A stretch of 64,000 nucleotides of DNA from NCBI GenBank assembly GCA_963797095.1, contig CAWCNY010000002.1, positions 10,063 to 74,062 on the forward strand, in the 5' to 3' direction. The position numbers were made by a program, and so were the translations under genes. Positions 7,043-50,068 of the stretch are shown here, piece after piece. The stretch is from an uncultured Chloroflexia bacterium. GTDB lineage: Bacteria; Chloroflexota; Chloroflexia; QHBQ01; JADMIH01. Positions within the stretch are counted from its first letter, which is position 1. Each line of letters opens with the position of its first letter. The notes under the pieces were generated by a model that saw only the letters and a list, made by a program, of their open reading frames with translations, had not been told where the DNA came from and did no database searches.

Positions 7043-7242
7043 ATTCAGTTCACCTCTTCTAATTAGGGGTTGTTCCTGGTACATGGCAGGTCCAGCAAAA
7101 ACCGTGCCCCCGAAGAGGGGACATACCAAAATTACGCTGCGAATCCTGTAGATCTACAGCGATTACCGGGAGATAGCTTGTCGCCGTGGGGACGAACAAT
7201 AACGCAGAGGCAATAGTAGCGCCTCATATTGGGAGTGAACGA

Positions 7243-8115
7243 CTAAGCGCTTGGAATCACTCCAAGAATCGTGTCCCGGACAACAGGCCACTCTTTCGAT
7301 ATCGGGTCTATGACCTCGAAATGTCCCGTGCCCTTCAGTGTGACCAACTCCGCATCGTCGCCGAGCGCCCTGGCACGCTCCACGAAAAGCTTGCTGATCT
7401 CGTAGGGCACATTGGGATCGTTTGTGCCGTGTACCAGTCTCTGCTTCACTCCGATGGGCAATAAGTCTCCAGGCGATGCGGTTTCATATCGCTCAGACAC
7501 CTCTTCAGGCGATCCCCCCATCAGGTCAACCACCACCCCCTGGCTCAGCTTCATCCGCCAGCAGAGCCGCAGGTCAACCACACCTGCCAGCGGCACGCAC
7601 GCCTCCACTGGCAGCGGGTCGGCCATACAGAGTGGGTCTCCCTCAGGGATCTTGTGCCTGCCCGCCAGCCACGCAGCCAGGTGCCCGCCAGCCGAGTGCC
7701 CCGTCACTACCACACGCCCCAGGTCCAGGTTGTGCTCCCCCGCAATTTCGCGCAGGTAGTCGCAAGCCATACCCACATCCAGCATAGTATTGGGCCAGCC
7801 GCCCCCTTCGTCACCCAGTCGCCTGTATTCAATGCTCCAGGTAGCCACACCGCTGGATGTGAGCGCCGCGCACAGATATCCAATATGGTCCAGGTTGTAC
7901 TTCGCCCGCCAGAAGCCCCCATGTATCACAATCACGATGGGGAACGGACCCTTTGCATCTCCCTTGGGCAAACGCAAATCGCCGAACTGCAAAGGGTCCT
8001 CACCGTAGCTGATACGGAAATCGGCTTCCGGTGGCATTACCGAAAACAACCGCTCGGCCATCGCATTCAATTGCGTGGCCTTGAATAATCTACTGAACCC
8101 CGAAAAAAAGCCCAT
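7243..8115 (-). CDS. Alpha/beta-hydrolase fold esterase (carboxylesterase/arylformamidase-like)
   Basis: HGGFW oxyanion motif and GHSAGG nucleophile elbow. Confidence 0.7.
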   Translation of the reverse strand: MGFFSGFSRLFKATQLNAMAERLFSVMPPEADFRISYGEDPLQFGDLRLPKGDAKGPFPIVIVIHGGFWRAKYNLDHIGYLCAALTSSGVATWSIEYRRLGDEGGGWPNTMLDVGMACDYLREIAGEHNLDLGRVVVTGHSAGGHLAAWLAGRHKIPEGDPLCMADPLPVEACVPLAGVVDLRLCWRMKLSQGVVVDLMGGSPEEVSERYETASPGDLLPIGVKQRLVHGTNDPNVPYEISKLFVERARALGDDAELVTLKGTGHFEVIDPISKEWPVVRDTILGVIPSA

Positions 8116-8211
8116 AGTCTGCTCCTGGTAGCCAGTAGTCGGTAGTTAGCGGGCGGCAGACCGCGCGTAGTTCCCGGTTCTTGGTTTCTAGTTGCTGATT
8201 TTGACTACCGA

Positions 8212-35595: not shown

Positions 35596-37011
35596 TTACG
35601 GCTCATTGCCCCACCGGTAGCCTTCCGGCGGCAGGCTTATATTGACTGCCACTCGGTCGGCCCTGGCTTTGGCTTCACCGACGTGGGCTGTATAGCTGAG
35701 CCTACCGGCCAACATCAACGGATAAAGCCCCATCTCCGGATAATCGAGCAGGGTACGGTGGGCGCTGAAGAACTGGTTGAGAGCCTCGATTGCCAGCGTT
35801 AACGCCCTGACCTCCCGCTCGCTTGGCCTTATCGGTTCACTATGCGCCACCAGCCTGTGGAATGAAGGCACGGCTTCTCGCGATGGGTATTTCAGCTTTC
35901 GCTCGGCCAGCCAGCTCAGATAGGTCGGATCGCTCTCTTCTTCGGGGTCGAAATAGAGCAGCAGGCTGTCCTCAATGGCTTCCAGGTATTCTTCTTTGTC
36001 CATAGATTCGTCCGCTTCTTCGCCTACTTCGTCGTCTGTAGCGATGCCTTGAGCCTCCATCATCGTAGATAGCATCTCACGCAGGGCCTCCGGTGGTACT
36101 TCATCCACCGGCGCACCCAACTGCCGCATCAACTCTATCAACTCGCCTACTCTCTGATCCGCTTTCTCAATCGGCTTATCTATTGATGCTTCTGCATCTA
36201 CCGCTGTTTCTGCCACTTCGCGCTCCATGCGCGCCTCACCGCGCTGTAAGATGCGCTCGAAAGCCTCAAGGGAATAGTAGAAAGCCACGCCGTATACTTC
36301 ACCGGCGTTGCCGAGAACAACAGCGTAGAGGGTTTCTACATCCTGTTGGGGTCCGTGTCGACCCAGTTCAATGGCGATCGGTAGATCACTGCCCATGTAT
36401 TCCCACGGGGCACGACGCCAATAGCTGGCCGCCGCCTTGTAGAGAGGTGGTAGTAGTACTTCAGCAATAATCCACTCAAAAGGCTCAGGCGGATCCTTCC
36501 CGGCGTCCCCATTGGCGCCCAGTGCTGCGGACAGGTCGCGAAATGCTTCTTCATAGTCCGGCAAGTGTTCTGCATATTCAATGGGTATGCCGAGAGGAGC
36601 AAGCAAATGGCGCGCGGCCTCGGCCAGCACTGGATCGTTGATTATTATCCTCGTGGGAAGGCCAGGTTCGGGTGAGGGGAAGGGAATTGCAACAGGGGTA
36701 GCCACCGGCCTGGCAAGAGCCTCTACAAGTAGTTGAAGCGATTCGGTGATTCCGTCATCGCTGCTTTCGGCGGGGTTGATCAGCTGAACAGCACGGACGA
36801 AGCCGCTATCCGCCTCCACCCACAACGCTATCTGCGGTTGAACGGCCTGCTTATTTTCATAGATGTATACCCCCAATGGCCGCTTTCCACCCTGGATCAC
36901 TAAACCGCTACGGCGCGGCAAGGTCGCCAATTGCGCAATGATCGCTTGCAATCCGGTTGGATTGAGAACTTTCCGCTTAGTTCTTGCCATGGCCGGCGGC
37001 CCCCCTTTCAC
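35596..37011 (-). CDS. Hypothetical 471-aa acidic protein (island cargo)
   Basis: Long ORF with consistent codon usage; no motif I can assign. Confidence 0.4.
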   Translation of the reverse strand: MKGGPPAMARTKRKVLNPTGLQAIIAQLATLPRRSGLVIQGGKRPLGVYIYENKQAVQPQIALWVEADSGFVRAVQLINPAESSDDGITESLQLLVEALARPVATPVAIPFPSPEPGLPTRIIINDPVLAEAARHLLAPLGIPIEYAEHLPDYEEAFRDLSAALGANGDAGKDPPEPFEWIIAEVLLPPLYKAAASYWRRAPWEYMGSDLPIAIELGRHGPQQDVETLYAVVLGNAGEVYGVAFYYSLEAFERILQRGEARMEREVAETAVDAEASIDKPIEKADQRVGELIELMRQLGAPVDEVPPEALREMLSTMMEAQGIATDDEVGEEADESMDKEEYLEAIEDSLLLYFDPEEESDPTYLSWLAERKLKYPSREAVPSFHRLVAHSEPIRPSEREVRALTLAIEALNQFFSAHRTLLDYPEMGLYPLMLAGRLSYTAHVGEAKARADRVAVNISLPPEGYRWGNEP

Positions 37012-37369
37012 GCTGTGCTCGGTTACCAGATTATTCTACACTTCATCGATTGCATTGCCCAATATCACAATATCATACGAGACCTGAGCCAGATTCCTGG
37101 ATTGCTCGCCGGTGGGATTACTCCGATTTAGATTATTCATGACTTGATACGAAATGGACTATTTCGAACATCGCCGGGCTGGCGTCGCCGAGAGTTGAAT
37201 TACAGCGCTGGCGATTGTACCACACTTCGATTTACTCGAACATCGACTATTTTCTCACCTGAGCTCCTGCAATCCCATTATCCACCTCGATCGTCTATCT
37301 TGGAGCCTAGCACGCATAACCCCGCACTTTTATCCGGTTGCTACACTTGTTGCTACACCTGGACCTGAA

Positions 37370-37403
37370 TTGCTACAAAAATACGCCGGAACAGCGTTCC
37401 GGC
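37370..37403 (-). terminator. Rho-independent terminator downstream of tRNA-Arg
   Basis: Stem GCCGGAA/TTCCGGC with a 5-nt loop, followed on the minus strand by GUAUUUUUG. Confidence 0.6.
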
Positions 37404-37435
37404 GTCGCTTTTCGTGCGTAAATCTGCTACCAAAA

Positions 37436-37512
37436 TGGCGCGCCCGGAGGGATTCAAACCCCCGACCCTCTGATCCGAAGTCAGATGCTCTAGTTCGCTG
37501 AGCTACGGGCGC
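37436..37512 (-). tRNA. tRNA-Arg (anticodon TCG), CCA encoded
   Basis: Minus-strand sequence GCGCCCG-TA-GCTC-AGCGAACTA-GAGC-A-TCTGA-CTTCGGA-TCAGA-GGGTC-GGGGG-TTTGAAT-CCCTC-CGGGCGC-G-CCA folds as a cloverleaf with a 7-bp acceptor and 5-bp anticodon stem. The loop CUUCGGA gives anticodon UCG. The T-loop U56 is paired by a D-loop A at the 19 position (covariation). Confidence 0.85.
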
Positions 37513-37666
37513 AGGACTACACAGACTTTTAGCTTTTCTAGGCGTAAAACGAGGGTCAAGAAGGTGCTACTGCTCTCGAAATTAGCCGATGGTTTGACAT
37601 GCTCAATCTGATTAGATGCTGTGTCAAACCACTATTTAGCTTACTAAACTAGCTCATTTGTGTCAA

Positions 37667-37757
37667 GACGCCCGGAGCATCTGAATCGTCTGAGGGCAAG
37701 CTCGAAGTATCTCGCTTGGCTAGGGGTCGGGGGTTTGAATCCCTCCGGGCAGCCTTT
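37667..37757 (+). repeat. Inverted tRNA-Arg-derived fragment: acceptor/T-arm 27-mer plus the gagcatctga D/anticodon-stem segment, separated by a 40-nt insert
   Basis: gggtcgggggtttgaatccctccgggc at 37724-37750 is the reverse complement of 37442-37468. gagcatctga is at 37674-37683. It does not fold into a canonical cloverleaf. Confidence 0.6.
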
Positions 37758-38585
37758 AGTGACCGTACAGCTATCAATCTCCCAAAATCGGTCGGCTGGA
37801 CTTCGATGCGGGCCTACAGCCCGCAAGTAATAGGATGTGGCCCCCCCCGGGGTTGGGGCCCCTCAAATCTGTCTGCACCGACCCTGTGGAAAAGTCGGAT
37901 GCGCTTGACATAGTGTCGTAACATGCATCCAGCACAAAGAGCCAGGACGGGCTTTGGCGGGCAAGCCCTGGCTCTGAGTGCGGGTTGCGACTTTCGTCGC
38001 TTCTCTTACATACGTGCGGCTGAGGAGCACGCAGGCAACAGGTGTTGCAACGGGGAGTATAACACAGTAGACATGAGCTAACAATGTGGAAAAGGTGGAA
38101 AACTCGAACCTGTGACATCACTTGCGTGTTCTGACGCCGCTAGCTGAACGGAGAAGAAGCATGAAAATAAGGTTTGAGACGGAGTACAGAATTGGGGGCC
38201 GCAAGGTATCGCAACGCGAATGGTTGGACCATATGCTAAGCAAGCAGCCGAACGGATTGCCCGGAACTGTGAGGCAAGAATTAGGTGCCCGGAGCATGGG
38301 AAGCCGCCCAAGGTGACATATCTTGGGGGGAGGTTCCATATCGAGGGGTGCTGTGAGAAGGTAGTTGAGTTGACGAAACGTGCGCTGAGTCGTTGATATT
38401 GCCAGTGGGCAGAACTAGGGAGAGCAGGACCGCCACCTGCTCCCTTTGGTCTGCATACAACAACTAGTGTTGGTTTGTAGTATATTATTGTAGCGATGCA
38501 CATCCTTGTGGCGAAGTTGCAGTGACAAAGGATTTCCCGGTACTTTTCGGCGTTCGTGTGGCGGGCGCTGTTCTACGAGGTACAC

Positions 38586-39794
38586 ATGACTCACCAAAGT
38601 ATTATCAGCTTGGATGACATTCTTGCTCTTGTGGGCAAGCTAGACGATACGCCCGGCCTAGACGCGCCCAGGGAGCGTTTTCGTAATCACCTACAGAAGA
38701 TAGTGGAAGTAGGGCAGCTTCGCGACTATGTTGAAACTTGCTTGAGGGCTTCAGGGGAGCAGTACGCACGCGCTCTCCAAGACTTAGTGAACTATGCAGG
38801 CAACTTCTTTGGTTTCCATGTGACCTATGGTAGGTACCAAGGAATATCTGGCGAACATAACTTTGATGGACGCTGGGAGGCTCCCGGCGGCCTCCATATA
38901 GTCATTGAGACCAAAACCACGGAAATCTACCCAATCAAAACGAGCAAACTTCTAAACTACATCAACGAACTGGTTGCTGCTGGGCAAATCCCCAAACAAG
39001 AGGATGCCTTGGGTCTGTATGTGGTAGGCCATCCGGACCCTGAGATACAGCAACTAGAAAACGCAATTGTGGTGCAAAAGCCGATTCCGAATTTGCGAAT
39101 TGTGTCGGCCCTATCCTTGCTGTCGCTGGCTGAGATGCGACAAGCCTATGGGCTCAATGATGATGACGTGTTAAGCATCCTCCTGCCCTCAGGGCCACGA
39201 ATTGACCCACTCATAATGCTTATTGACCGCCTGGTGGCTGAAAGAGAAGCGGAAGCAACGATGGCGAGTGAGCAGAAGGTAATAAGGACAACAGTCGAAA
39301 AACTGGGGCTGCCGGAACCTACTTTACAAGCCTCCAAGTTTGTCATTCCCGATACAGGCACCATCACCTTCTGGATTACCCCGGTTAGAGACGATGAAGG
39401 GGAGACTGCAGAACAGACCATTCAGAGGCTGGTGGGCGAAGAGCATATTTACGCTTTCGGAGAGAAAACGCCCGGTCGTAGGAAGATAAAGTCGGGCGAC
39501 GTGATTTGTTTCTATGCTGCGGGGCGTGGTGTCATTGCAGATGCTAGAGTAACATCGCCCCCAATAAAGAGGCCACACCCGCGGGTCAAGCAACCGGACA
39601 AGTATCCGTGGGTGTTTCGCATAAAGGATACACACCTCTATTTGGAAAACCCGGTTGTCATTGACGGGGCACTAAGGAGTCAACTTGACAGGTTCCAAGG
39701 GCGCGACCCAAACGGGCCTTGGGCATGGTTTGTTCAGGCTACACACGATGTTTCACAGCACGATTTTGAACTTCTAACACGACAGAAAGGCTGA
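38586..39794 (+). CDS. Predicted modified-base-dependent nuclease: N-terminal PD-(D/E)xK-like nuclease core plus C-terminal EVE (PUA-like) domain
   Basis: ATG at 38586 with RBS GAGG. N-terminal FDGRWEAPGGLHIVIETK fits the D...(E/D)xK pattern. The C-terminal 150 aa (FWITP...GDVICFYAAGRGVIADARV...KYPWVFRIKDTHLYLENPVVID...WAWFVQ) matches the EVE/PUA-like consensus. Stop lies 2 nt before the next gene. Confidence 0.5.
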   Translation: MTHQSIISLDDILALVGKLDDTPGLDAPRERFRNHLQKIVEVGQLRDYVETCLRASGEQYARALQDLVNYAGNFFGFHVTYGRYQGISGEHNFDGRWEAPGGLHIVIETKTTEIYPIKTSKLLNYINELVAAGQIPKQEDALGLYVVGHPDPEIQQLENAIVVQKPIPNLRIVSALSLLSLAEMRQAYGLNDDDVLSILLPSGPRIDPLIMLIDRLVAEREAEATMASEQKVIRTTVEKLGLPEPTLQASKFVIPDTGTITFWITPVRDDEGETAEQTIQRLVGEEHIYAFGEKTPGRRKIKSGDVICFYAAGRGVIADARVTSPPIKRPHPRVKQPDKYPWVFRIKDTHLYLENPVVIDGALRSQLDRFQGRDPNGPWAWFVQATHDVSQHDFELLTRQKG

Positions 39795-39796
39795 TT

Positions 39797-42700
39797 ATGC
39801 CGGCGCCACAATCCATCCTTTCCCACATTGAGCGCTTCGACAATGACCGACAAGCCTACAAATCCGGCGTCTATAATGAGGCGCAGGTTCGGCGCGAGTT
39901 CCTGGACCCCTTCTTCAAGGAGCTAGGCTGGGATGTAGAGAATGAAGGTGGTGCGGCGGTTGCCTACAGAGACGTAATTCATGAAGACACGTTGAAAATC
40001 GGTGAGACTACGAAAGCCCCGGACTACTCATTCCGCATAGGCGGCACTCGAAAGTTCTTTGTTGAGGCCAAAAAGCCGTCTGTCAACTTGGATACGGACC
40101 CTAGACCAGCTTACCAACTGCGGCGCTATGCCTGGTCTGCAAGCCTACCCCTAAGCATCCTCACCGATTTCGAGGAGTTCCTGGTTTATGATTGTCGAAT
40201 AAAGCCGGACGCCTACGACGGTGCGCGGGTGGCCCGCGCCATGTATCTCAAATACACGGAATATGCGGATAAGTGGGACGACATTGCCGCGCTCTTCTCT
40301 CGCGAGGCCGTGCTCGCCGGGTCGCTTGACAAATATACCGAATTGCTTAAGGCCAAGACAGGCTCGTCCACTGTTGATGCTGATTTCCTAAAGGAGATTT
40401 CAGTCTGGCGCGAGATGCTAGCACAAGACTTGGCAGCGCGGAATCCGCACCTAACTCAACGCGACCTCAATTATGCTGTGCAGATGACTATCGACCGTAT
40501 TATTTTCCTGCGTATTAGCGAAGACCGGGGCATTGAGCCATATGGCAGATTGCTGGAAGCACAACAGGGAGAAAGAGTGTATGCGCGGCTGTGTCGGCTC
40601 TTCGAAGCTGCCGACGACCGCTACAATTCGGGCCTGTTCCACTTCCGCGACGAGAAGGGCCACAACGAGCCGCACGATGAGCTAACCCCGGCACTGACTA
40701 TACACGACGACACACTCCGGCGTATCATCACCCGCCTTTACTACCCCGATTCGCCCTATGCCTTTTCAGTCATGCCGATTGAAATTCTGGGGCAGGTTTA
40801 CGAGCAGTTCCTGGGCAAGGTTATTCGCCTGGACGAATCTCGTAATGTTGAGGTTGAGGAGAAGCCAGAAGTACGCAAGGCGGGCGGCATCTACTATACG
40901 CCCACATACATCGTGGATTACATCGTAAAACAAACTGTCGGCAAACTCCTGGAAGGCAAGACGCCGAAGCAAGCCGTCGACTTTCGTATTGTGGACCCCG
41001 CGTGCGGCTCCGGTTCATTTCTCATCGGCGCATACCAATACCTTCTCAACTGGCATCGCGACTGGTATGTGGCTGACGGCACACAGAAGCACAAGAAGGA
41101 GCTTTATGAGGCTTCAGGAGGCGAGTGGCGACTAACTACGAATGAGCGCAAAAGGATACTACTAAATAACATTTATGGCGTGGATATCGACCCCCAGGCG
41201 GTAGAGGTCACAAAGCTCTCACTCCTGCTTAGAGTGCTTGAGGGAGAAACCGGACAAACCTTGGCAACGCAGCTGCGGATGTTCTACGAGCGGGCGCTGC
41301 CGGACCTGAGCAGCAATATTAAGTGCGGTAATTCCTTAATAGGTTATGATTTCTACAGCGCGACACAGGCCAGCTTTCTGTCGCCGGAGGAACACAGCCG
41401 CATCAACGTGTTCAACTGGCACGAGGCTTTTCCCCAGGTGTTCAAGCGCGACAGCTCTGGATTTGATGCTGTGATTGGCAACCCGCCGTACATTCGTATC
41501 CAGACTATGCAGGAGTGGGCTCCCGTAGAAGTCGCACACTACAAGCGACGATATGTTTCGGCCAGCAAAGGCAACTACGACGTGTATGTTGTGTTTGTGG
41601 AGAAGGGACTTTACCTGCTCAATAAGGGCGGACAACTTGGCTTCATCCTGCCCCACAAGTTTTTCAATGCTCAGTATGGCGAGCCGCTGCGCGCCCTGTT
41701 GGCACAGGGGCACCACTTAGCTGAAGTGGTGCATTTTGGCGACCAACAGGTGTTTTCAGGCGCGACGACCTATACCTGCTTGCTCTTCCTTGAAAAACGC
41801 GGCTCCTCTGAAGTGCAGATTGCCATGGTTGAGAATCTGGACCAGTGGCGCAGGAAGTCCCAGGCTGTGTACGGAACGGTTCCAGCAGAAGCTATTGCAC
41901 CTTCTGACTGGAATTTCTATGTCGGAGAGGGTGCTGACTTGTTTGGCAAGCTAAGACAGGTGCCAACAAAACTGGGTGCTATCGCGGAACGCATTTCGCA
42001 GGGGATTCGTACAAGCGCCAATGAGGTGTACGTGCTCAACATCGTGGACCAAGCGACCGATGTACTAATCGTCCATTCACAGTCGTTGGGTAAGCAGGTG
42101 GAGGTCGAGCGGGCCGCGGTGACACCCTTCCTTCAAGGCCGCGAAATCAAGTCATATAGGGTACTTCCTTCCGGTAAGGTGGTGATTATCCCTTATCACC
42201 TGGCGAATGGCCGCGCAAAGCTCGTTCCCGAGGATGAAATGAAGACTCGTTTCCCGCTCACTTTGGCCTATCTTGTTGCAAATAGGGCATACCTAGAGGA
42301 ACGGGAACGGGGCAGGATGCATGGCTCGTCCTGGTATGCCTTCGTCTATCCAAAAAACATCGAATTGATGAAGTCGGCCAAGATTCTTGTGCCGGACATT
42401 GCCGATAGAGCAGCATTTGCACTAGATGAAGCCGGCGAATACGCCTTCACAAGCGGTTATGGCATTACATTGAGACCTGATGTTAGCTTGTCGCCCAACT
42501 ATGTTTTGGGCCTACTGAACAGCAAAGTCCTGGACTTCTACCTAAAGCGTGTCAGCACGACTATGCGCGGCGGCTTTTTCCGATACTTCACACAGTACGT
42601 TGAGCAATTGCCGATGCGTGCTATCAATTTCGCTGACCAGGCCGACAAAGCCCGACACGACCACATGGTATCACTTGTAGCACGGATGGTAGACTTTTAC

Positions 42701-42847
42701 AGACAATCAGCCGTTGCCAAGACACCGCACGACAAGACTGCAATCCAGCGCCAGATAGACGCCGCCGACGGGCAGATAAACTCCCTTGTGTACGAGCTTT
42801 ATGGGCTGACAGATGAGGAAATCCGAATTGTTGAGTCGGATAAATAG
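39797..42847 (+). CDS. Type IIG (MmeI-family, Type IIL) restriction-modification enzyme: PD-ExK endonuclease, N6-adenine methyltransferase and target-recognition domain in one 1016-aa polypeptide
   Basis: N-terminal PDYSF...FFVEAKK (D/ExK). HsdR_N-like region (YAWSASLPLSILTDFEEF). MTase motif I VDPACGSGSFL and motif IV GNPPYIR. Colinear with MmeI. Confidence 0.8.
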   Translation: MPAPQSILSHIERFDNDRQAYKSGVYNEAQVRREFLDPFFKELGWDVENEGGAAVAYRDVIHEDTLKIGETTKAPDYSFRIGGTRKFFVEAKKPSVNLDTDPRPAYQLRRYAWSASLPLSILTDFEEFLVYDCRIKPDAYDGARVARAMYLKYTEYADKWDDIAALFSREAVLAGSLDKYTELLKAKTGSSTVDADFLKEISVWREMLAQDLAARNPHLTQRDLNYAVQMTIDRIIFLRISEDRGIEPYGRLLEAQQGERVYARLCRLFEAADDRYNSGLFHFRDEKGHNEPHDELTPALTIHDDTLRRIITRLYYPDSPYAFSVMPIEILGQVYEQFLGKVIRLDESRNVEVEEKPEVRKAGGIYYTPTYIVDYIVKQTVGKLLEGKTPKQAVDFRIVDPACGSGSFLIGAYQYLLNWHRDWYVADGTQKHKKELYEASGGEWRLTTNERKRILLNNIYGVDIDPQAVEVTKLSLLLRVLEGETGQTLATQLRMFYERALPDLSSNIKCGNSLIGYDFYSATQASFLSPEEHSRINVFNWHEAFPQVFKRDSSGFDAVIGNPPYIRIQTMQEWAPVEVAHYKRRYVSASKGNYDVYVVFVEKGLYLLNKGGQLGFILPHKFFNAQYGEPLRALLAQGHHLAEVVHFGDQQVFSGATTYTCLLFLEKRGSSEVQIAMVENLDQWRRKSQAVYGTVPAEAIAPSDWNFYVGEGADLFGKLRQVPTKLGAIAERISQGIRTSANEVYVLNIVDQATDVLIVHSQSLGKQVEVERAAVTPFLQGREIKSYRVLPSGKVVIIPYHLANGRAKLVPEDEMKTRFPLTLAYLVANRAYLEERERGRMHGSSWYAFVYPKNIELMKSAKILVPDIADRAAFALDEAGEYAFTSGYGITLRPDVSLSPNYVLGLLNSKVLDFYLKRVSTTMRGGFFRYFTQYVEQLPMRAINFADQADKARHDHMVSLVARMVDFYRQSAVAKTPHDKTAIQRQIDAADGQINSLVYELYGLTDEEIRIVESDK

Positions 42848-43139
42848 CCGGGGGTCAGAGACCAAGACCATCAACACCAGAACGAAAGCCCAAGAGAATC
42901 AAACGCAGCCTATATAGCTCTATGGTATGAGGTGTTGTGAGTTCACGACGTGGAACATTGCCTCAATGTCATTGTCAGCGCCCGCCTCCTTGAATAAGGC
43001 AATTGCCTCATCCGGCGTGCATAGGCCGTATTCTCGAAAGAAGGCGGTCGTAAAGTGCCAATCAGAAGGGCCAGATTTTTCGCCGTATTTCGTCTTGCGC
43101 CCCACAACATCGGCGAAAGCAACAAGGTCGCATAGCTCA

Positions 43140-43496
43140 CTAAGCCGCTTTAGCGCAGGATGAAGAACGCGGGGCGTTTTTGTAGGTATAGGCACGCTGC
43201 TTGTGTCGGCTCCAGGTCTTGTGTCGTTTCTTATGGCATTTTGTACAAAGAGTACGAAGGTTGTCAAGCTCATTGTTGCCTCCCAAGCACAACGGGATAA
43301 GATGGTGGACCTCAAGGCGGCAGTTGCGCTTCTTGCAATCCCTGCAAGTGAAGTGGTCGCGCAGGAGTGCCAAGCGGCGGATGGCGCGCCAATTGCGGCC
43401 TCGTGCAGCACGCCTACACTTGTCGGAGCAATATGCGTGAATATGGCTCTTCGGTGAGAAATCGGTTCCGCAACTTCGACATTTCTTGGTATTCAT
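43140..43496 (-). CDS. HNH endonuclease (McrA-like small HNH protein)
   Basis: ATG at 43496. N-terminal zinc ribbon CRSCG...CSDKC. HNH core HHLIPLCLGGNNELDNLRTLCTKCHKKRH. Confidence 0.7.
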   Translation of the reverse strand: MNTKKCRSCGTDFSPKSHIHAYCSDKCRRAARGRNWRAIRRLALLRDHFTCRDCKKRNCRLEVHHLIPLCLGGNNELDNLRTLCTKCHKKRHKTWSRHKQRAYTYKNAPRSSSCAKAA

Positions 43497-43630
43497 CGTG
43501 CCGCCTCCTCATTTGTACCTGTATTATACCAGTACAAAACGTACTTGTCAAGGGGTTTGCGCAATATTGCTCGAAATTGGTCGGTCATAGTTTGGCAGCA
43601 TGACGAGCAAAGCTAAATGTAAGAGCCTCT

Positions 43631-43659
43631 TGACAATTTAGTTTCTTACCTGTATAATA
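43631..43659 (+). promoter_or_regulatory. Consensus sigma-70-type promoter (TTGACA, 17 bp spacer, TATAAT) driving the RHH gene
   Basis: cTTGACAatttagtttcttacctgTATAATacc. The 15-mer tacctgtatAatacc overlaps the -10, and a second copy tacctgtatTatacc is at 43513-43527. Confidence 0.6.
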
Positions 43660-43690
43660 CCTGCATGATATATTTGAGGAGGCATGACAA

Positions 43691-43891
43691 GTGGTAGAAA
43701 AGAACCCCAATAAGGGCGGCAGACCTCGCAAGGACACACATGCAAGGCAGTTCCCCCTTTACATCTACATGATGGACGAGGAGAGCCTGCAGCAGGTCAA
43801 AGAAGCAGCAGAGCGACAAGGGCTTAGCTTCAGCACCTGGGCACGGACCGTACTGGTAAGAGAGGCACGGCGCATCTTGAGCGGCGAGTAA
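43691..43891 (+). CDS. Ribbon-helix-helix (CopG/Arc-like) DNA-binding protein
   Basis: GTG start with RBS GGAGG. Beta-strand FPLYIYMM followed by two helices (SLQQVKEAAERQGLS, FSTWARTVLVREARR). Paralog of the 49515-49733 product. Confidence 0.5.
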   Translation: MVEKNPNKGGRPRKDTHARQFPLYIYMMDEESLQQVKEAAERQGLSFSTWARTVLVREARRILSGE

Positions 43892-44058
43892 TTGCCCAAA
43901 TCGCCCCGCATATTGTAGAGACCCCCCGGTAACTTTCCATTTGCCTTTCGGCAATTGTGTGGCCCCCCGGTTCTCTACTTGCCGCTACGCGTGTGACGCG
44001 ACCCCAAAGCGGCCAACATAAGCACAACACGGAGGGAAATGGTTATTAGTGCGGAGAT

Positions 44059-44340
44059 GTGCCCCTGGCGCTTATCCAGTCGTCAAGAGGAGGTAGTTTG
44101 TTGGAAACTTTGGAAGCAACGCCTGAAGTATGTGAGTCGCTCATATTCGATGCGCGTAACCGGCTAATGCTGGCCTATCTAGCTCGTGAAGATGGTGTTT
44201 CGGGCGCTTACGAGCGCTTGGAGGTCGAGCGTTGGCGGGTCAACCTGATGGAAAGCGAGATGGGGCGCCCCTGCCTCCCTGTGCTGACTGAGTTACGCGC
44301 ATCGGGACAGCAGATTTATCTATTGGACCTTGACGATTGA
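44059..44340 (+). CDS. Hypothetical small protein
   Basis: 93 aa ORF; no motif. Confidence 0.25.
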   Translation: MPLALIQSSRGGSLLETLEATPEVCESLIFDARNRLMLAYLAREDGVSGAYERLEVERWRVNLMESEMGRPCLPVLTELRASGQQIYLLDLDD

Positions 44341-44925
44341 GCGCAGCGCCCCGCAGACCTGTGCGATAATGGGCACCGGGTCGGGGTAGCCATACTTACG
44401 CCGGGCGATTATGCAGTTATCGGGGAGCGTGTCAAGAGCAAATACCCTGAAAGATGATTGCTCCCCCCGATTGAAGCGTAGCCGCCCCGGCTCCGTTCCT
44501 GAACGCTGAACATAGTCTGCATGCCAGGCAGCGAAAAGCCTGAGGTCTATTATCGTCCAGGCTACGAGGCCGCTCTCATCAGGCGACTTGAACCCGTAGA
44601 ACATCACATCACCTTCGCCATCAAGTATCTTGCCAAGCTCTGTTCGCCTTCCGCTTGGCACACTGGCGCGCAGAGTGATTTCACCTACATATCTCAGGTA
44701 GTCGTAAGCGCGTAGCCTAACTGCGATTCTCCGGTGGGGAAGGATTGCGTCGGTGTTCTTGTGTCGGTCAATATGAAGGGGCGCGCGTTGGATAGTGTAC
44801 CGCCCGACAAGCGCGCCGATTTCCGGAAGTAGCATGTCGTCGCGAGACTGCTCAACGCGGCGGTCAACGTCGGCAACTTGATACAGTAACTGTCTTTGGA
44901 GCGTGGGTAATTCGGTGTCAATCAT
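44320..44925 (-). CDS. Hypothetical protein (mobile-element cargo)
   Basis: 201 aa ORF; no motif I can assign. Confidence 0.35.
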   Translation of the reverse strand: MIDTELPTLQRQLLYQVADVDRRVEQSRDDMLLPEIGALVGRYTIQRAPLHIDRHKNTDAILPHRRIAVRLRAYDYLRYVGEITLRASVPSGRRTELGKILDGEGDVMFYGFKSPDESGLVAWTIIDLRLFAAWHADYVQRSGTEPGRLRFNRGEQSSFRVFALDTLPDNCIIARRKYGYPDPVPIIAQVCGALRSIVKVQ

Positions 44926-45041
44926 ACTTAGTTCCTCAGTTCGATATGTGGGGCATAGTTAAGCCCCTAGTTGTAGTTCTAGGGGCAGCCAGCGAGCGGA
45001 ATCCATTACTTGCTTCTAGTATTCATTACTTGCTTCCGCCC

Positions 45042-46556
45042 CTATACTCTATAAGGAGAATCCATCGGGGCATATTGCCTGTAATTACCGGGAAGGAAAA
45101 GCTTTGTTCGTCTCCCTCTGCCTGCAGCGACATCAAGCTGCTTGCCACTCGCATCACGAGCGTAGGCAACTATCCGCTTGAGCAGCAGGTTCTTCATAGC
45201 TTCTTGACAACGCTTCTGGGGAAGGGCGCACCAGGCCTCTAGGAATTGCCAGCTAAGGGGGGCCGGGTCACCATAGGTGTGGAGCCACCGCGCTTGGAAG
45301 AGAAGGTTGAGCTTGTCATAGACTATGCGGGTGTCTGCCTCGTCCAGCTCGTATGGCAGGGCTGGAAGTTGGACGCGAGCCGGTTGCACATACCCTGTCT
45401 CGACCATGAGGCGCAGATGCCATGTGACGGACCCTGATTTGCTGGGACGCACCTCCTCAGGTGAGCGTGGGCGACGCAATGCAAGGGCATACGCGACTTC
45501 CGACATGAGAAGCGCCGGGCTTGCATCTGGCCGCACATGGAAGTCTCTATAGACATAGACGCCATTCTGGCCGGGATAGATGCTTGCGGATGGACCATTC
45601 TCCTCGTGGCCCGGCAAGACACAAAGGAACGTCTTTCCGAAGGGCACATCAGGGATACCCATAAGCCTACATGCCGCCCGGATGAAGTCCTGGTCGCGGC
45701 TAGCATCTGTGAGGTACTCACCAACTAGGCCCCCCTCAGTTCGGGCGCACTCTGCTATGCGCTGTAGCGCAGCCTTGCGCTCCTGGAGCAAGTTGGGCAT
45801 GATGAGGCTCTTCTGTGACTGCCTCCTGTTGGCATCGCTGCGGCCTGTGCTTGGCACTCTTGACCTACCTTCGGCCTGCATCAGCTTCTCAGCGAGCCAG
45901 TCGGGTAGACAAAGGGGCGGGCGCTCGTGAGGCCCGAAACTTGCAAGCCAGGTGTACCGCCTGCCGGACTGGTGAAGGGAAGGCGGCAGTACCAGATAGC
46001 CGCCAACGCCGCGCACATCTACTCCGGGAGCCACTTTGCCGTTTGAAGCGCTAATGTATCGCCCCCCAGTCGAGAAGAAGAGATGCTCACCCCAACCTTC
46101 GCGACCGCTGCGGGCCTTTACGGTCTCTGTGAAGGCCGGGCCATGCTTCGCTATCCAGTCGTTCAAGGCCTCTATGCCTTCTTCTCCGTCCAGGTCTATT
46201 GCGACAAGATTAGCCCTTGCAGGTACGCACCCGATGCCGGCGTGCGCCCATCGCGTCCACCATTTGCTTATGACTTCACGGTTTGTGGAGGCATTTTTCA
46301 GGTAGTCTTTGATAAGGGGCTTTTTGTTGACGCTGTCCACCGGGAATACTGGTATTCCGGCTTGGGCGTATGCGAGTGCCCACTCTAGCATATCAGGTGA
46401 TTCGGTCTGGGTAGGGAGATAAGGAATTGGCTTCGTCTGCGTTATATTGGGTGCCGCCCCTGTCTTCACCGGAGCATAAGGGCGAACTCTTGGGCGGGTT
46501 GGTCGTGTAGTAATTGCGAGTGTCATTTGGCCCCCTATTGTGGGCAGGTGCTCCAA
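45042..46556 (-). CDS. Bifunctional DNA primase/polymerase (PrimPol) domain protein with a C-terminal extension (replication initiator of an integrative element or plasmid)
   Basis: AYAQAGIPVFPV...KKPL...W.THAGIGCVP...NLVAIDLDGEEG matches the PrimPol N-terminal consensus (bifunctional primase-polymerase, AEP superfamily). Confidence 0.7.
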   Translation of the reverse strand: MEHLPTIGGQMTLAITTRPTRPRVRPYAPVKTGAAPNITQTKPIPYLPTQTESPDMLEWALAYAQAGIPVFPVDSVNKKPLIKDYLKNASTNREVISKWWTRWAHAGIGCVPARANLVAIDLDGEEGIEALNDWIAKHGPAFTETVKARSGREGWGEHLFFSTGGRYISASNGKVAPGVDVRGVGGYLVLPPSLHQSGRRYTWLASFGPHERPPLCLPDWLAEKLMQAEGRSRVPSTGRSDANRRQSQKSLIMPNLLQERKAALQRIAECARTEGGLVGEYLTDASRDQDFIRAACRLMGIPDVPFGKTFLCVLPGHEENGPSASIYPGQNGVYVYRDFHVRPDASPALLMSEVAYALALRRPRSPEEVRPSKSGSVTWHLRLMVETGYVQPARVQLPALPYELDEADTRIVYDKLNLLFQARWLHTYGDPAPLSWQFLEAWCALPQKRCQEAMKNLLLKRIVAYARDASGKQLDVAAGRGRRTKLFLPGNYRQYAPMDSPYRV

Positions 46557-46607
46557 ACGCGCCTGCCCTTCAGTGCTTTAAATCTGCAGTACGGCGAACT
46601 TTTCGCT

Positions 46608-46817
46608 TTAGCGCTTGTGGTCGATATAGGCTTCAGCAGCTTTCGCGGCTTCGGTGGGGTCGTTGAAAACCCCTGGAATAGCGCGACGCCCCGCCCCATA
46701 GATAGGGGTTATGCTTGCGCGGTATCGATACAGACGACCTGCGGCCCTGCGAACTTCGATGGTGTAGTCCTTATACTGATATGCGTCTACCAGATTTACC
46801 CTTGTTCCAGCTTTCAC
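46608..46817 (-). CDS. Hypothetical small protein
   Basis: 69 aa ORF; 4-nt overlap with the upstream ORF suggests co-translation. Confidence 0.3.
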   Translation of the reverse strand: MKAGTRVNLVDAYQYKDYTIEVRRAAGRLYRYRASITPIYGAGRRAIPGVFNDPTEAAKAAEAYIDHKR

Positions 46818-47017
46818 TTTGTATCACCTCCCTGGCTCTGAGTTGTTGCCCATTCTTGGGCTAAGGCGTATAAGAGGCGGCTAATGCAGCCGCGCTCTGT
46901 GATTCTTCCCGGTCCGCGTTTGTGGAGAAGTCCTCGTGCTCTGGCCATAGAGCGAAGGAGTTCTTCCGTCCGGGGTGTAACGGTAAGTAACAACTGCTTT
47001 TCCTTAGTCTGCTTCAC
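46814..47017 (-). CDS. Hypothetical small basic protein
   Basis: 67 aa ORF; start is 11 bp from the iteron-like repeats. Confidence 0.3.
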   Translation of the reverse strand: MKQTKEKQLLLTVTPRTEELLRSMARARGLLHKRGPGRITERGCISRLLYALAQEWATTQSQGGDTK

Positions 47018-47027
47018 TGCGTCCTCC

Positions 47028-47130
47028 TAATTCTGTAACTGGATACCTATATTTATCCCCTCTACTTAATCAAGCAGGTTCGTATTCGTAACTGGATACC
47101 TATGTTTCCCCCTTCTACTTAATCAAGCAG
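47028..47130. repeat. Two ~50-bp direct repeats (iteron-like) in a divergent intergenic region of the element
   Basis: attctgtaactggatacctatatttatcccctctacttaatcaagcagg and attc-gtaactggatacctatgtttcccccttctacttaatcaagcagg. Confidence 0.8.
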
Positions 47131-47171
47131 GCAGGTTTCTTATTCTGAAAGTTATCGGGTAGACTGTACAT

Positions 47172-47603
47172 ATGCTTTCTGCCCGACTTATCTTCGCGCA
47201 CCCGGAACTATGTCAACCGCTAACCGGGCTATCGCCGGCTGACTTCCGTGCAACCGCCAAGGGAATCGGAGAGTACTACATAGACGAACGTGAAGCGCGG
47301 CTCAGTAGCCGCCCTCGCATCCGGGAAATTGGAGGCGGCTCGAAGCCGCTCTTGCCAGCAGACGTCATATTGCTGGGCATGATATGGCTACGCTGCCGCC
47401 CCACACAAAAGGCATTAGCGGCGCTATTTGGCAGAAGCGTGCCAACAGTTGGTCGTTACAAGCAGCTAGTAGAGCCAATACTGCTAGAAACGCCTTATGC
47501 CTTCCTTGCCACCCCAGACCCCGGACGGAAGCGCAGGCGCGATTTGGGTGAGTTGCGGGCGGACATTCCGGAGCTAGATAAGTTGTGGCGTCAGTGCCGC
47601 TAG
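47172..47603 (+). CDS. Truncated IS5/Harbinger-type transposase N-terminal HTH domain (HTH_Tnp_4-like); no DDE domain follows
   Basis: LTGLSPADFRAT...RPRIREIGGGSKPLLPADVILLGMIWLRCRPTQKALAALFGRSVPTVGRY matches the N-terminal HTH module of IS5/DDE_Tnp_4 transposases. The ORF ends after 143 aa. Confidence 0.4.
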   Translation: MLSARLIFAHPELCQPLTGLSPADFRATAKGIGEYYIDEREARLSSRPRIREIGGGSKPLLPADVILLGMIWLRCRPTQKALAALFGRSVPTVGRYKQLVEPILLETPYAFLATPDPGRKRRRDLGELRADIPELDKLWRQCR

Positions 47604-47870
47604 TTCCTGCAACTTCATGCAAGATTTCCTGCAAGAATTGCCTTTCGAATGAAGTCGGTTGAGGCCTGTTTTGAGCACGCTACCCATTCCCGTTGCGCTT
47701 GTCGCGCTGTATTTGTACGGGCTACGCGCCGCCCTGATACACGCACAGGCGATAGTGGGTAAGGCAATTGTTGGCGCTGCCTTACGCTCTCGCTTGCCCA
47801 CAAATGAAAAGGGCCGCCCCTATAGGGCGGTTCTCGATGGTTAACGTGCTTGCAGGGTCGGGGAGCCAAG

Positions 47871-49106
47871 CTAAGGAATCAGGCCGGCCTTCTTCAACCT
47901 CTTTCTGACACCCATATCAGACATCTGATACTTACGAGCTACTGCACGATAGTTGCTCTGCGCTACCTCCCTGGCAAGTACCTCAGCAGGAGGCAACTCC
48001 TTGGGAACTGCGTTCTTGCTTCGGGTGCCGCTGCCGTCTTCCAGGTGCAACTCGTGGCGCAGGTGGTCAAGGGGCCCGTATTTGGCATGTTCAGCCAGCA
48101 GGTCCTCTTTGCTGATGTTCAGGTAGTATCTGCGGGTCGTGTCGAACTGCTCATGTCCCAGCGCTTCTTGCAGCGTAGCGCCCCTCATGCCGTTCCGGTG
48201 AGCCTGGGTTGCAAATGTGTGCCTGCAAACGTGGGGATGGACAGGCACCCGCGTGATGCCCGACAACTTACTCAGTCGCGTGAATACCAAGCGCAACCCT
48301 GCATAAGTCAGGGGAGCACCCTGATGGCTGACCCACAATTCCTGAAAGGGCGTGCTCATCTTCAATCGGAAGCGGTGGAGGTATGCCCATAGCTCTCGCC
48401 TAGCGAAGTTGCCCACCACTACCTGCCTCTCCCTGTTGCGCTTCCCACGCACTGTAAATAGCCCCTCGCCTGGGTTGATGTCGCCCACTTTGAGGCTTAG
48501 AAGTTCTCCGGCCCGGATACCGCTATCCAGCAAGACAGCAAGTATGCAGCGGTTGCGCTGCACGGTGAAGGGTAGGCCGAAGTTCTCACAGGCAGCGAAT
48601 AACTGGGCAATCTCTTCGTCGGTAAACACAGTCACCTGCCAGCGATTAGGCAGGGACGGCATATCCACCAGGCTGAATGGGTTGCGTGGGAGGTCCGCTT
48701 CCTTCGTCGCCCAACGAAAAAAGGCGCGCAGGCTTCGGGCGAAGCCATGCACGCTGGCAGGGGTTAATGGTTTGCGGCTGCTGGGGCGGCACACACCCCA
48801 CCGGCCACTGTCGCCTGGGTCCTCCTGCAAATAGACCAGGAAGGCCCGTATGTACAAGGGGGAAATACTAGAGAGGTTAGTTGGATACCCCTCTTCCTTT
48901 AGAAACCATCGGAAGCGCTCCAGATTCCACTGATAGAATTGGATTGTTCGGGGGCTGTGTCGCTGCGAGCGATGCTTCAGCAGGAACCCTTGAACATAGA
49001 AGTTGAAGTCGTCCGCCGATTCTTGAGTAGACTGTTGGGGGTACAAGCCGCTGCCGGGCGCTTTGAGGTTTGAGTAGCGATTCCGAATTAGATGCTCGTT
49101 TGACAT
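47871..49106 (-). CDS. int: Tyrosine-type site-specific integrase (phage integrase family)
   Basis: ATG at 49106 with RBS AGGAGA. N-terminal SAM-like domain. C-terminal catalytic R...HxxR...Y (VHPHVCRHTFAT...RYY). Confidence 0.85.
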   Translation of the reverse strand: MSNEHLIRNRYSNLKAPGSGLYPQQSTQESADDFNFYVQGFLLKHRSQRHSPRTIQFYQWNLERFRWFLKEEGYPTNLSSISPLYIRAFLVYLQEDPGDSGRWGVCRPSSRKPLTPASVHGFARSLRAFFRWATKEADLPRNPFSLVDMPSLPNRWQVTVFTDEEIAQLFAACENFGLPFTVQRNRCILAVLLDSGIRAGELLSLKVGDINPGEGLFTVRGKRNRERQVVVGNFARRELWAYLHRFRLKMSTPFQELWVSHQGAPLTYAGLRLVFTRLSKLSGITRVPVHPHVCRHTFATQAHRNGMRGATLQEALGHEQFDTTRRYYLNISKEDLLAEHAKYGPLDHLRHELHLEDGSGTRSKNAVPKELPPAEVLAREVAQSNYRAVARKYQMSDMGVRKRLKKAGLIP

Positions 49107-49223
49107 GGGTGTTGTCTCCTATTATAGGAGAGCAATAACCCCTCAGCTACTCAATTCACGCCTGAAATCGCTGTCTGGCTAGGTTCTAGGCCCGCAACGA
49201 GGTGTAATAAGGTCAAACTCGCA

Positions 49224-49264
49224 ATCCGAAGTCAGATGCTCTAGTTCGCTGAGCTACGGGCGCA
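49224..49264 (-). repeat. Exact 41-nt copy of the 5' half of tRNA-Arg(TCG) (anticodon loop to 5' end), adjacent to the integrase start
   Basis: atccgaagtcagatgctctagttcgctgagctacgggcgca is identical to 37472-37512. It overlaps the 3'-half copies only in the anticodon-loop core atccgaagtc. Confidence 0.85.
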
Positions 49265-49514
49265 AATATCATGAACCGCTGGCTCGTCCAGATAAAGCAA
49301 ACTATCGTAGTTAGCTTACTTCAACAGCTTATTAGTGTCAAGAAAGCTTGAAATAATGGGTGCACAGAAGCGATGCGCTGGCCTTGTACAACATTCAGAT
49401 CAAGAAATCCAAGAATACATCAATAGACCATCGACCTTGCCAACAACACCGTAACCAGCGTATAATTAGTAGTGGTATGATAATATACCGAATCATTGTC
49501 TGGAGAGAGCGCCT

Positions 49515-49733
49515 ATGACCAATGGGATGGATGCAGAAATGCCTGCACGTAGACGGCCCGGCCGCCCACCCAAAGAAGTCCGCATGAAAGAATTCCCGGT
49601 GCATTTTTATATGCAATCGCGGGATAGCTTGGACAGATTGAAAAGAGCAGCCGAGACCGAAGGTATGTCTCTTAGCACCTGGGCGCGTACCGTATTACTC
49701 AGAGAAGCGCGACATATTCTGCACGATGAATAG
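49515..49733 (+). CDS. Ribbon-helix-helix DNA-binding protein, paralog of 43691-43891 (Xis/regulator-like position next to int)
   Basis: FPVHFYMQSRDSLDRLKRAAETEGMSLSTWARTVLLREARHIL. Divergent from the integrase, with the tRNA fragment between them. Confidence 0.5.
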   Translation: MTNGMDAEMPARRRPGRPPKEVRMKEFPVHFYMQSRDSLDRLKRAAETEGMSLSTWARTVLLREARHILHDE

Positions 49734-49798
49734 AAGCATGAGAGCGTGCACAAGCAGGGTCATGTAAGAGTGTTAGAGCAAATGAAAGGAGACAGAAA

Positions 49799-50068
49799 TT
49801 GGCTAGTGTGACGAATCCTGATCACCGTATGATTAGTAAGACCCCCCTGAACCAGGTGGAGACAAGGCGAGGCAATATTATGCAATCGCCCTACATGTTC
49901 AGGAATCTGCCTGGAGAATTGCGTCGTTTGCAGGCATTCGTACAAGATGTGCGCGTTATGTTGGGCGAGGATGTGCCCGCCCTTATTACGGAAGTGAAGC
50001 ACCTGCGCCAGGAGAACAAGCGGCTGGAAGCAAGGTTAGAAGCACTAGAGAACCATAATCAGCAATAA
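49799..50068 (+). CDS. Hypothetical small protein with a C-terminal coiled coil
   Basis: 89 aa ORF ending KHLRQENKRLEARLEALENHNQQ. Confidence 0.3.
   Translation: MASVTNPDHRMISKTPLNQVETRRGNIMQSPYMFRNLPGELRRLQAFVQDVRVMLGEDVPALITEVKHLRQENKRLEARLEALENHNQQ

Follow-up and report, generated by a model that had tools for sequence, protein, structure and literature searches.

The 64,000-nucleotide stretch of Chloroflexia DNA analyzed here (the window) contains two intact ORFs on the forward strand, placed 2 nt apart as the initial annotation had described. The first, gene 1 (38586..39794, 402 aa), encodes a predicted modification-dependent (Type IV) restriction endonuclease. The second, gene 2 (39797..42847, 1016 aa), encodes a single-chain Type IIG restriction-modification (RM) enzyme that combines a nuclease, a gamma-class N6-adenine methyltransferase and a target recognition domain (TRD). 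The reading frame of gene 1 runs uninterrupted from an ATG at 38586 to a TGA at 39792-39794; we preferred this ATG over an upstream GTG at 38556 because it is preceded by GAGG and because homolog alignments begin at residue 5. The gene 2 ATG at 39797 follows the gene 1 stop codon on the same strand, and the last part of gene 1, ahead of the gene 2 start, contains a Shine-Dalgarno-like AGAAAGG. The 2-nt gap and the internal Shine-Dalgarno-like sequence are consistent with co-transcription, which had been called almost certain and which we consider probable on these sequence features. Promoter and terminator scans returned counts no higher than those of shuffled controls.

The pair had also been placed on a tRNA-integrated, AT-rich element, and both descriptions held. 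The integration target is a tRNA-Arg gene (anticodon TCG; 37436..37512, reverse strand) identified by ARAGORN and matching the Rfam tRNA model at 63.9 bits; an Rfam scan of positions 37000-50000 found nothing besides this tRNA. A repeat search identified a 41-nt att-like direct repeat with two copies of 100% identity. The proximal copy (37473..37513) spans one base plus tRNA positions 1-40, corresponding to the 5’ half up to and including the anticodon loop, and the distal copy (49224..49264) is an orphan tRNA 5’ half at the far end of the element. The repeats bound a segment of ~11.7 kb that carries gene 1 and gene 2 along with a bifunctional primase/polymerase (Prim-Pol) gene (45042..46556, reverse strand; Pfam Prim-Pol 1.3e-36), a small HTH protein (47172..47603, forward strand; Pfam HTH_Tnp_4 5.6e-05, under the gathering cut-off) and a tyrosine integrase (47871..49106, reverse strand; Pfam Phage_integrase 5.9e-29, with SAM-like N-terminal domains). 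Its GC content is 53.9%, compared with 57.6% for the rest of the window, and is lower than in all 58 same-size intervals taken elsewhere (minimum 56.0%). The repeat, the integrase and the deviating composition together confirm that the gene pair is carried on a tRNA-integrated mobile element.

Domain architecture of the two proteins

Over nearly its full length gene 2 matches the PADLOC model REase_MTase_IIG (PDLC03604, 2.2e-265, residues 9-1013), upholding the Type IIG assignment: HSDR_N, Eco57I/N6_Mtase and TaqI_C domains follow in this order on one polypeptide, with their catalytic motifs intact. The HSDR_N-type PD-(D/E)xK nuclease domain (residues 60-140, 39974..40216; Pfam HSDR_N 2.3e-10) carries the motif P75-D76...E90-x-K92, invariant in four aligned Type IIG enzymes. 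The N6-adenine methyltransferase domain (residues 329-679, 40781..41833; Pfam Eco57I 8.2e-47, N6_Mtase 5e-20) contains motif I, DPACGSGSFL (400-409), and motif IV, NPPY (562-565), both invariant in four aligned relatives. The TaqI_C-type TRD (residues 777-939, 42125..42613; Pfam TaqI_C 9.9e-18) is the least conserved region among the Type IIG relatives. The label “MmeI-family” proved imprecise and we rejected it, as MmeI_Mtase was the only MmeI model to match, at 51.6 bits versus 159.9 bits for Eco57I. MmeI_N, MmeI_hel, MmeI_TRD and MmeI_C were not matched in Pfam at E<=1; as a positive control, an MmeI relative adjoining one gene-1 homolog (L010) matched all five MmeI Pfam domains. Sequence matches in the PDB comprised the adenine-specific methyltransferase chains 7lni/8cxz, BseCI, BsaXI and TaqI, with no MmeI chain among them. 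Like Eco57I-type enzymes, gene 2 carries its nuclease, gamma-class N6-adenine methyltransferase and TRD on a single chain, whereas its HSDR_N-type nuclease and TaqI_C-type TRD set it apart from MmeI proper. Judged by its sequence, gene 2 is a complete Type IIG enzyme of the Eco57I/TaqI_C kind.

Gene 1 joins a FokI-like PD-(D/E)xK nuclease at the N-terminus to a predicted EVE reader at the C-terminus. Residues 1-200 (38586..39185) form a helical N-terminal bundle and the nuclease core, with putative catalytic residues D94 (38865-38867), E108 (38907-38909) and K110 (38913-38915) that are invariant across the family and all kept in the window protein; E50, which at least 90% of members share, is present too. 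The nuclease core is followed by a long helix (residues 207-239), a disordered linker (240-256) and then an EVE/YTH-like domain of the PUA superfamily (residues 262-400, 39369..39785), the predicted modified-base reader. In structural comparisons the nuclease domain most resembled DNA restriction nucleases of Types II and IIS. For the C-terminal domain the top structural match was the UPF0310 protein PH1033, not a YTH domain, although YTH domains rank among the top matches; VcaM4I and THYN1, EVE proteins that bind 5mC/5hmC (PMC7897488), also match. The proposed architecture was thus recovered: the C-terminal domain belongs to the PUA-like clade, the N-terminus holds a nuclease core, and the catalytic residues are intact. 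By sequence, the window protein falls below Pfam detection for EVE, and searches of Pfam, PADLOC, NCBIfam and PHROGs returned nothing meaningful (Ku_N, E 0.33; phrog_2460, E 0.04). Searching the PDB with the sequence and with a family profile gave chance-level matches only (FAP279, an intein; E 0.05-0.1). Gene 1 displays features of a Type IV enzyme: an intact catalytic nuclease motif, a reader of the PUA superfamily (EVE/YTH/SRA/ASCH) and no required cognate methyltransferase, since the gene stands without a methyltransferase neighbor in most of 68 loci. We infer that gene 1 would cut only DNA that carries a modified base.

The gene-1 family and its neighbors

At 50% identity the gene-1 family falls into at least 1358 clusters, many among them domain-only matches, and it is spread patchily across bacteria and archaea as a single gene with heterogeneous neighbors. 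The EVE type of gene 1 is also fused to GmrSD_N+HNH (L071, L072), to HNH (P0164) and to an HSDR_N nuclease (P0190), and its nuclease type is joined to other C-terminal domains; such modular exchange is characteristic of modification-dependent nucleases. In a scan of viral contigs we found only 2 relatives, indicating that this is not a phage-borne family. We found no experimentally characterized member of the exact family in a literature search. No model in Pfam, NCBIfam or PADLOC covers it, so that annotation pipelines built on such models will miss it; a dedicated model would improve defense annotation.

EVE, PUA and YTH domains were originally known as RNA binders, which, with the YTH domains among the structural matches, lends some support to reading gene 1 as a toxin or abortive-infection effector, or as a nuclease that acts on RNA, its EVE domain recognizing modified RNA such as tRNA. 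EVE domains are found in toxin-antitoxin contexts as well (PMC7641849). We regard this reading as improbable: the nuclease domain most resembles DNA restriction nucleases, the EVE domain is of a type that occurs elsewhere fused to GmrSD, a DNA-targeting Type IV family, and no conserved antitoxin-like partner was found beside gene 1 in the loci surveyed.

Most of the 68 gene-1 loci have no RM or methyltransferase neighbor, and an RM methyltransferase adjoins the gene-1 homolog in roughly 22-25% of them. A Type IIG-like neighbor is present in ~7 of the 68, so that the expected adjacency to Type IIG genes elsewhere does occur, occasionally. In six Firmicutes loci the homolog lies within an RM operon, next to Type III mod, res or both, with 4-nt overlaps; both genes flank it in L037 and L042 only. 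The DNA methyltransferases adjoining gene-1 homologs (Pfam/PADLOC) are all amino-methyltransferases within complete Type IIG or Type III systems, and a motif regex screen (not a profile search) of 364 neighbors found no C5-cytosine methyltransferase, a pattern that fits a reader sparing m6A-marked host DNA. Given the 22-25% adjacency and the Type III operon loci, some functional tie of the family to RM systems may exist. A broader version, in which the family is an accessory module that tends to be drawn into RM operons of the adenine-methylating types (Type IIG, MmeI, Type III) and the window pair is one instance of a wider undescribed coupling, seems to us doubtful. The clade cited for this version is one from Firmicutes with the gene-1 homolog as the fixed middle gene between mod and res. 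Variants of this version have the module co-regulated with the RM system, or m6A marks labeling host DNA as ‘self’ and so shielding it from the nuclease.

We also surveyed 80 loci of close gene-2 relatives. Gene 1 was found within 4 kb in none of them, despite room upstream in 51 and downstream in 56. These loci have no conserved neighbor of any kind, and a candidate upstream accessory-gene ‘slot’ in the Type IIG clade was rejected because the neighbors do not cluster. These counts bear on the proposal of a distinct coupled system, in which the EVE reader of gene 1 would recruit, license or regulate the Type IIG enzyme, or act as a backup when that enzyme is inhibited (anti-anti-restriction). 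The common strand and 2-nt gap fit translational coupling. About one gene-1 locus in four adjoins an RM system with an adenine methyltransferase, which, like the six Firmicutes operons, points the same way. However, few gene-1 homologs have a Type IIG link, and those that do are dispersed over the gene-1 tree; their placement relative to the Type IIG gene varies (upstream, downstream, convergent or with an intervening gene); sister homologs adjoin differing RM types (L006, Type III; L010, MmeI); and gene 2 has all the domains required to act alone. We therefore consider a coupled system very unlikely, and the suggested recruitment or regulation of the Type IIG enzyme drew no support from these comparisons. 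With neither recurrent co-occurrence nor a fixed arrangement, the pair looks like a local pairing, not a conserved two-gene system.

A similarly slim chance attaches to gene 1 being a nuclease that depends on m6A and, like DpnI, reads N6-methyladenine, here through a YTH-like pocket. The YTH-like similarity formally allows it, but about a quarter of gene-1 homologs adjoin or overlap active-looking adenine methyltransferase genes, beside which such a nuclease would attack its own host unless the two enzymes act in different sequence contexts. The ranking of PH1033 above YTH domains and the matches to the 5mC/5hmC binders also argue against it. A housekeeping or DNA-repair nuclease recognizing damaged bases is the least plausible reading, given the patchy distribution, the absence of a conserved housekeeping neighborhood around gene 1 in the loci surveyed, its place in the window as cargo of a mobile element, and the shuffling of its domains with known defense nucleases.

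Proposed activities and comparison with known systems

Considering the gene structure, folds, intact motifs, mobile-element context and absence of a conserved partnership observed here, we think it likely that gene 1 is a stand-alone Type IV nuclease co-transcribed with an autonomous Type IIG enzyme, the two forming complementary but independent cargo. Both would be translated from one transcript of the 11.7-kb integrase/Prim-Pol element in tRNA-Arg. The EVE domain of gene 1 would flip out and bind a modified base of incoming DNA, with a modified cytosine or other hypermodified base likelier than N6-methyladenine, and the FokI/BspD6I-like domain would cut nearby, probably once dimerized as in FokI. 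On host DNA, gene 2 would methylate the adenine of its recognition motif; unmethylated copies of that motif on foreign DNA would be cut. Acting independently, gene 2 would thus be directed against unmodified phage DNA and gene 1 against phages that evade it by base modification.

The initial annotation held that such a pair is not a standard described system, which overstated its novelty. Proteins joining EVE and PD-(D/E)xK domains, with EVE at either end, have been catalogued as putative Type IV enzymes (Bell, Wolf and Koonin 2020, PMC7641849), a class found in defense contexts, fast-evolving, heterogeneous and defined by bioinformatics only. Gene 1 is likened to this class by domain architecture, the fusion of a PUA-superfamily EVE reader to a PD-(D/E)xK nuclease, and its family is distinguished by the specific FokI/BspD6I-like nuclease and the N-terminal helical bundle. 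EVE proteins beside RM systems, covering modified and unmodified DNA, have already been discussed (PMC7641849). The EVE-HNH enzyme VcaM4I is a characterized modification-dependent nuclease (PMC7897488); in VcaM4I and TspA15I the nuclease is HNH and C-terminal (PMC6765204, PMC7897488), whereas in gene 1 it is PD-(D/E)xK and N-terminal. Other PUA-nuclease families, the VcaM4I/TspA15I enzymes among them, are reported to lie near DNA methyltransferases in <6% of cases (PMC6765204), compared with about a quarter of gene-1 loci for RM methyltransferases. END nucleases (a PLD nuclease with an inactive EndoIII sensor; PMC12191111) resemble gene 1 as single-gene defenses that place a Type IIS-like nuclease at the N-terminus and a modification sensor at the C-terminus, and they too swap domains, with PLD-EVE versions known (PMC12191111); they differ in nuclease superfamily (PLD/HxK) and sensor fold. 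The cleavage domains that the gene 1 nuclease resembles, those of FokI and BspD6I, are Type IIS; FokI has a sequence-reading targeting domain and a cognate methyltransferase, whereas the targeting domain of gene 1 is a predicted modified-base reader.

The E. coli hsd-mrr-mcrBC immigration control region encodes a methylation-based system together with Type IV enzymes. BREX with BrxU places a Type IV enzyme inside a methylation-based defense operon, with complementary coverage shown experimentally (PMC8565348). As in these precedents, the window pair encodes an attacker of unmodified DNA with a predicted attacker of modified DNA; it differs in its single-chain Type IIG partner and in a Type IV gene of EVE + PD-(D/E)xK architecture, not GmrSD, Mrr or McrBC. 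Each gene is of a known kind, and the pair does not look like a new system, nor does it establish a new mechanism. The pairing on a small integrative element would be a natural example of layered defense, against unmodified and modified phage DNA, as a single mobile cargo, and the compact combination of a FokI-like nuclease with an EVE reader could become a reagent for mapping modified bases.

A predicted restriction gene pair on a tRNA-integrated element

ORF listing and translations bear out the two intact forward-strand ORFs described in the initial annotation: gene 1, a predicted nuclease-reader fusion (38556/38586-39794), and gene 2, a Type IIG restriction-modification enzyme (39797-42847). 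The better start for gene 1 is the ATG at 38586 rather than 38556, because a GAGG precedes that ATG by 6 nt and the alignment with 31 homologs begins at approximately residue 5. The TGA of gene 1 (39792-39794) is separated from the ATG of gene 2 by only 2 nt, and an AGAAAGG is located within the 3' end of gene 1, ahead of gene 2; this arrangement makes co-transcription plausible, and translational coupling is probably plausible as well. Promoter and terminator scans gave counts not above those of shuffled controls and are neutral with respect to the transcript.

Both genes are cargo of an integrative element of ~11.7 kb. A tRNA-Arg(TCG) gene (37436-37512, reverse strand; ARAGORN and Rfam) overlaps one copy of a perfect 41-nt direct repeat (37473-37513 and 49224-49264), which spans one base plus tRNA-Arg positions 1-40, the 5' half through the anticodon loop. 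The repeats enclose a tyrosine integrase (47871-49106, reverse strand), a Prim-Pol gene (45042-46556, reverse strand), a small HTH protein and the gene pair, together with several further ORFs that gave no family match. The island has a GC content of 53.9% versus 57.6% for the remaining window, below every one of 58 same-size windows elsewhere. Both the tRNA-integrated element and the AT-rich surroundings previously claimed for the pair were therefore recovered. Duplication of the tRNA 3' end is the more usual outcome of such integration, and the 5'-half duplication at this tRNA-Arg is its mirror image. The arrangement implies that the element supplies the 5' half of the functional tRNA-Arg, and presumably its promoter too.

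Several smaller features accompany the element. The integrase adjoins the distal, orphan copy of the att-like repeat (49224-49264). Inside the element, ~210 nt from the 5' end of tRNA-Arg, positions 37724-37750 are a perfect 27-nt inverted copy of 37442-37468 (the T-arm and 3' acceptor region of the tRNA); neither ARAGORN nor Rfam called a tRNA there, and the copy may have been left behind by a previous integration event, or else form part of the architecture of the recombination site. Two 44-nt repeat copies, 91% identical and spaced by 53 nt, occur between the Prim-Pol and HTH genes (47035-47131), and a 16-nt repeat pair (45001-45036) lies immediately 3' of the Prim-Pol ORF; both sets are candidates for the element's iterons or operators. 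The ~1 kb from the tRNA to gene 1 (37514-38585) contains no convincing gene and is blank in Rfam, an ORF at 38078-38503 (reverse strand) having no family match, and a terminator-like hairpin (38422-38442, forward strand) lies ahead of gene 1. Just outside the element, 35596-37011 (reverse strand) encodes a protein of 471 aa that carries DUF6930 and DUF7309 domains.

Architecture of the two enzymes

The gene 1 protein itself matched nothing significantly in Pfam, PADLOC, NCBIfam, PHROGs or PDB sequences. Its family is nonetheless large, with more than 893 full-length homologs at ~52-57% identity, and 1358 representatives of 50%-identity clusters matching at E<=1e-3 (308 at E<=1e-30). The main value of this analysis is to flag this large family of predicted Type IV enzymes, for which Pfam, NCBIfam and PADLOC have no model. 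An alignment of 32 family sequences has 65 invariant columns, D94, E108 and K110 (FDGxW...hhVExKTTE) among them, and E50 is kept in at least 90% of the members. All four residues are present in the window protein, and therefore gene 1 is not inactivated. Pfam EVE matched 23 of the 32 aligned members weakly (best E-value 1.5e-6). In the AlphaFold model (pLDDT 80.8), residues 1-200 form an N-terminal alpha/beta domain and residues 207-239 a long helix, followed by a disordered linker (240-256) and a beta-rich domain at the C-terminus (262-400). The proposed architecture, an N-terminal nuclease followed by an EVE/PUA-like domain, stands, with one refinement: the nuclease belongs to the FokI/BspD6I type and has the same fold as the cleavage domains of those enzymes.

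Gene 2 matched the PADLOC model REase_MTase_IIG PDLC03604 over residues 9-1013 (2e-265), and Pfam identified HSDR_N (residues 60-136), Eco57I (8e-47), N6_Mtase (5e-20) and TaqI_C (1e-17). Four relatives share P75-D76...E90-x-K92, DPACGSGSFL and NPPY without variation but differ in the TRD region. These results uphold the Type IIG part of the earlier "MmeI-family Type IIG" label, but the MmeI part is imprecise: of the MmeI Pfam domains only MmeI_Mtase was matched, at only 51.6 bits, unlike a true MmeI relative that lies beside a gene 1 homolog at another locus (L010) and matches all five. By PDB sequence comparison, the closest solved structures are the adenine-specific methyltransferase chains 7lni/8cxz, BseCI, BsaXI and TaqI, and MmeI is not among the nearest. 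Taken together, the domain matches, motifs, structural neighbors and MmeI comparison identify gene 2 as a Type IIG enzyme of the Eco57I/TaqI_C kind that is complete and self-sufficient.

Genomic linkage of gene 1 homologs to restriction-modification systems

The initial annotation had proposed a distinct system coupling gene 1 to a Type IIG enzyme, which surveys from both sides did not bear out. Among 78 loci with gene 1 homologs fetched from bacterial and archaeal genomes, only 5 had a tblastn match to gene 2. Clustering of the neighbors revealed very heterogeneous contexts; the largest cluster, Type IIG-like enzymes, was represented at 7 of the 68 loci (counting the window) and in no fixed arrangement. 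The Type IIG-like gene is directly downstream in the window and L032, upstream with one gene intervening in L002, convergent in L074 and two genes away in L027. Type IIG-linked members are scattered over the neighbor-joining tree of gene 1, and two sister homologs lie by a Type III system (L006) and a true MmeI (L010). Conversely, around the closest gene 2 relatives (80 metagenomic loci, 44-66% identity), none had a gene 1 homolog within 4 kb, with room upstream in 51 and downstream in 56, and their neighbors did not cluster. Co-occurrence thus extends to an occasional Type IIG neighbor. Because the linkage is rare, variable and scattered, and absent within 4 kb at the 80 loci on the gene 2 side, the pair is not a conserved two-gene system; each gene behaves as an autonomous cassette, and the finding is one of two known kinds of defense gene side by side on a mobile element.

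Linkage to restriction-modification (RM) systems more broadly was observed at roughly 12-14 of ~57 loci (22-25%), where an RM methyltransferase lies within 3 kb of the gene 1 homolog; for other PUA-nuclease families, a DNA methyltransferase is nearby in <6% (PMC6765204). In six loci of a Firmicutes clade (Desulfofundulus, Neomoorella and related MAGs; L033, L036, L037, L039, L042 and L045) the homolog is part of a Type III operon and has mod (N6_N4_Mtase) and/or res (ResIII/SWI2_SNF2 plus a TnsA-like nuclease) beside it. Both flanks are occupied only in L037 (homolog at about 8001-9167) and L042, the downstream gene in L033 is only a 163-aa nuclease fragment, and the junctions that are present overlap by 4 nt. 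This adjacency may reflect ordinary defense-island clustering plus one inherited insertion, though a functional link between the gene 1 family and RM systems keeps a low probability. At L026, the gene at 6252-7973, directly upstream of the homolog across a 4-nt gap, encodes an N6_N4 methyltransferase fused to an Mrr_cat/NA-iREase1 nuclease domain, another RM-like single-chain partner distinct from Type IIG.

Predicted function of gene 1

In two Okeania genomes the EVE type of gene 1 recurs in fusion with GmrSD_N+HNH (L071 6429-8534 and L072 891-3014; 47-48% identity to gene 1 residues 226-399). It is joined to HNH in protein P0164 and to an HSDR_N-type nuclease in P0190, and the N-terminal nuclease also occurs with different C-terminal domains. 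Such shuffling is as expected of modification-dependent nucleases. Bell et al. counted fusions of EVE, at either terminus, to PD-(D/E)xK among the common architectures of putative Type IV enzymes, a logic that gene 1 shares, and mentioned rare GmrSD fusions (PMC7641849). VcaM4I, which like TspA15I has the same kind of reader but an HNH nuclease, provides experimental proof that an EVE-nuclease fusion depends on modification (PMC7897488). On these grounds, gene 1 is most likely a Type IV restriction endonuclease. Its EVE domain would bind a flipped-out modified base; cleavage nearby would fall to the FokI-like domain, which would dimerize. Also among the nearest known counterparts are END nucleases, laid out analogously with a Type IIS-like nuclease at the N-terminus and a sensor at the C-terminus (PMC12191111), and BREX with BrxU, where a single operon holds a Type IV enzyme together with a methylation-based system and complementarity is proven (PMC8565348).

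The DNA methyltransferases identified beside gene 1 homologs by Pfam and PADLOC are all amino-methyltransferases within complete Type IIG or Type III systems, mostly adenine-type, although N6_N4_Mtase matches could be N4-cytosine enzymes; a motif screen of 364 neighbors detected no C5-cytosine methyltransferase. For this reason m6A is a less probable target of the reader than modified cytosines or hypermodified bases. One relative of the nuclease (P0145) carries a SeqA_C-like C-terminal domain, a weak match below the cut-off (E 1.2e-4) that hints at an m6A-sensing form.
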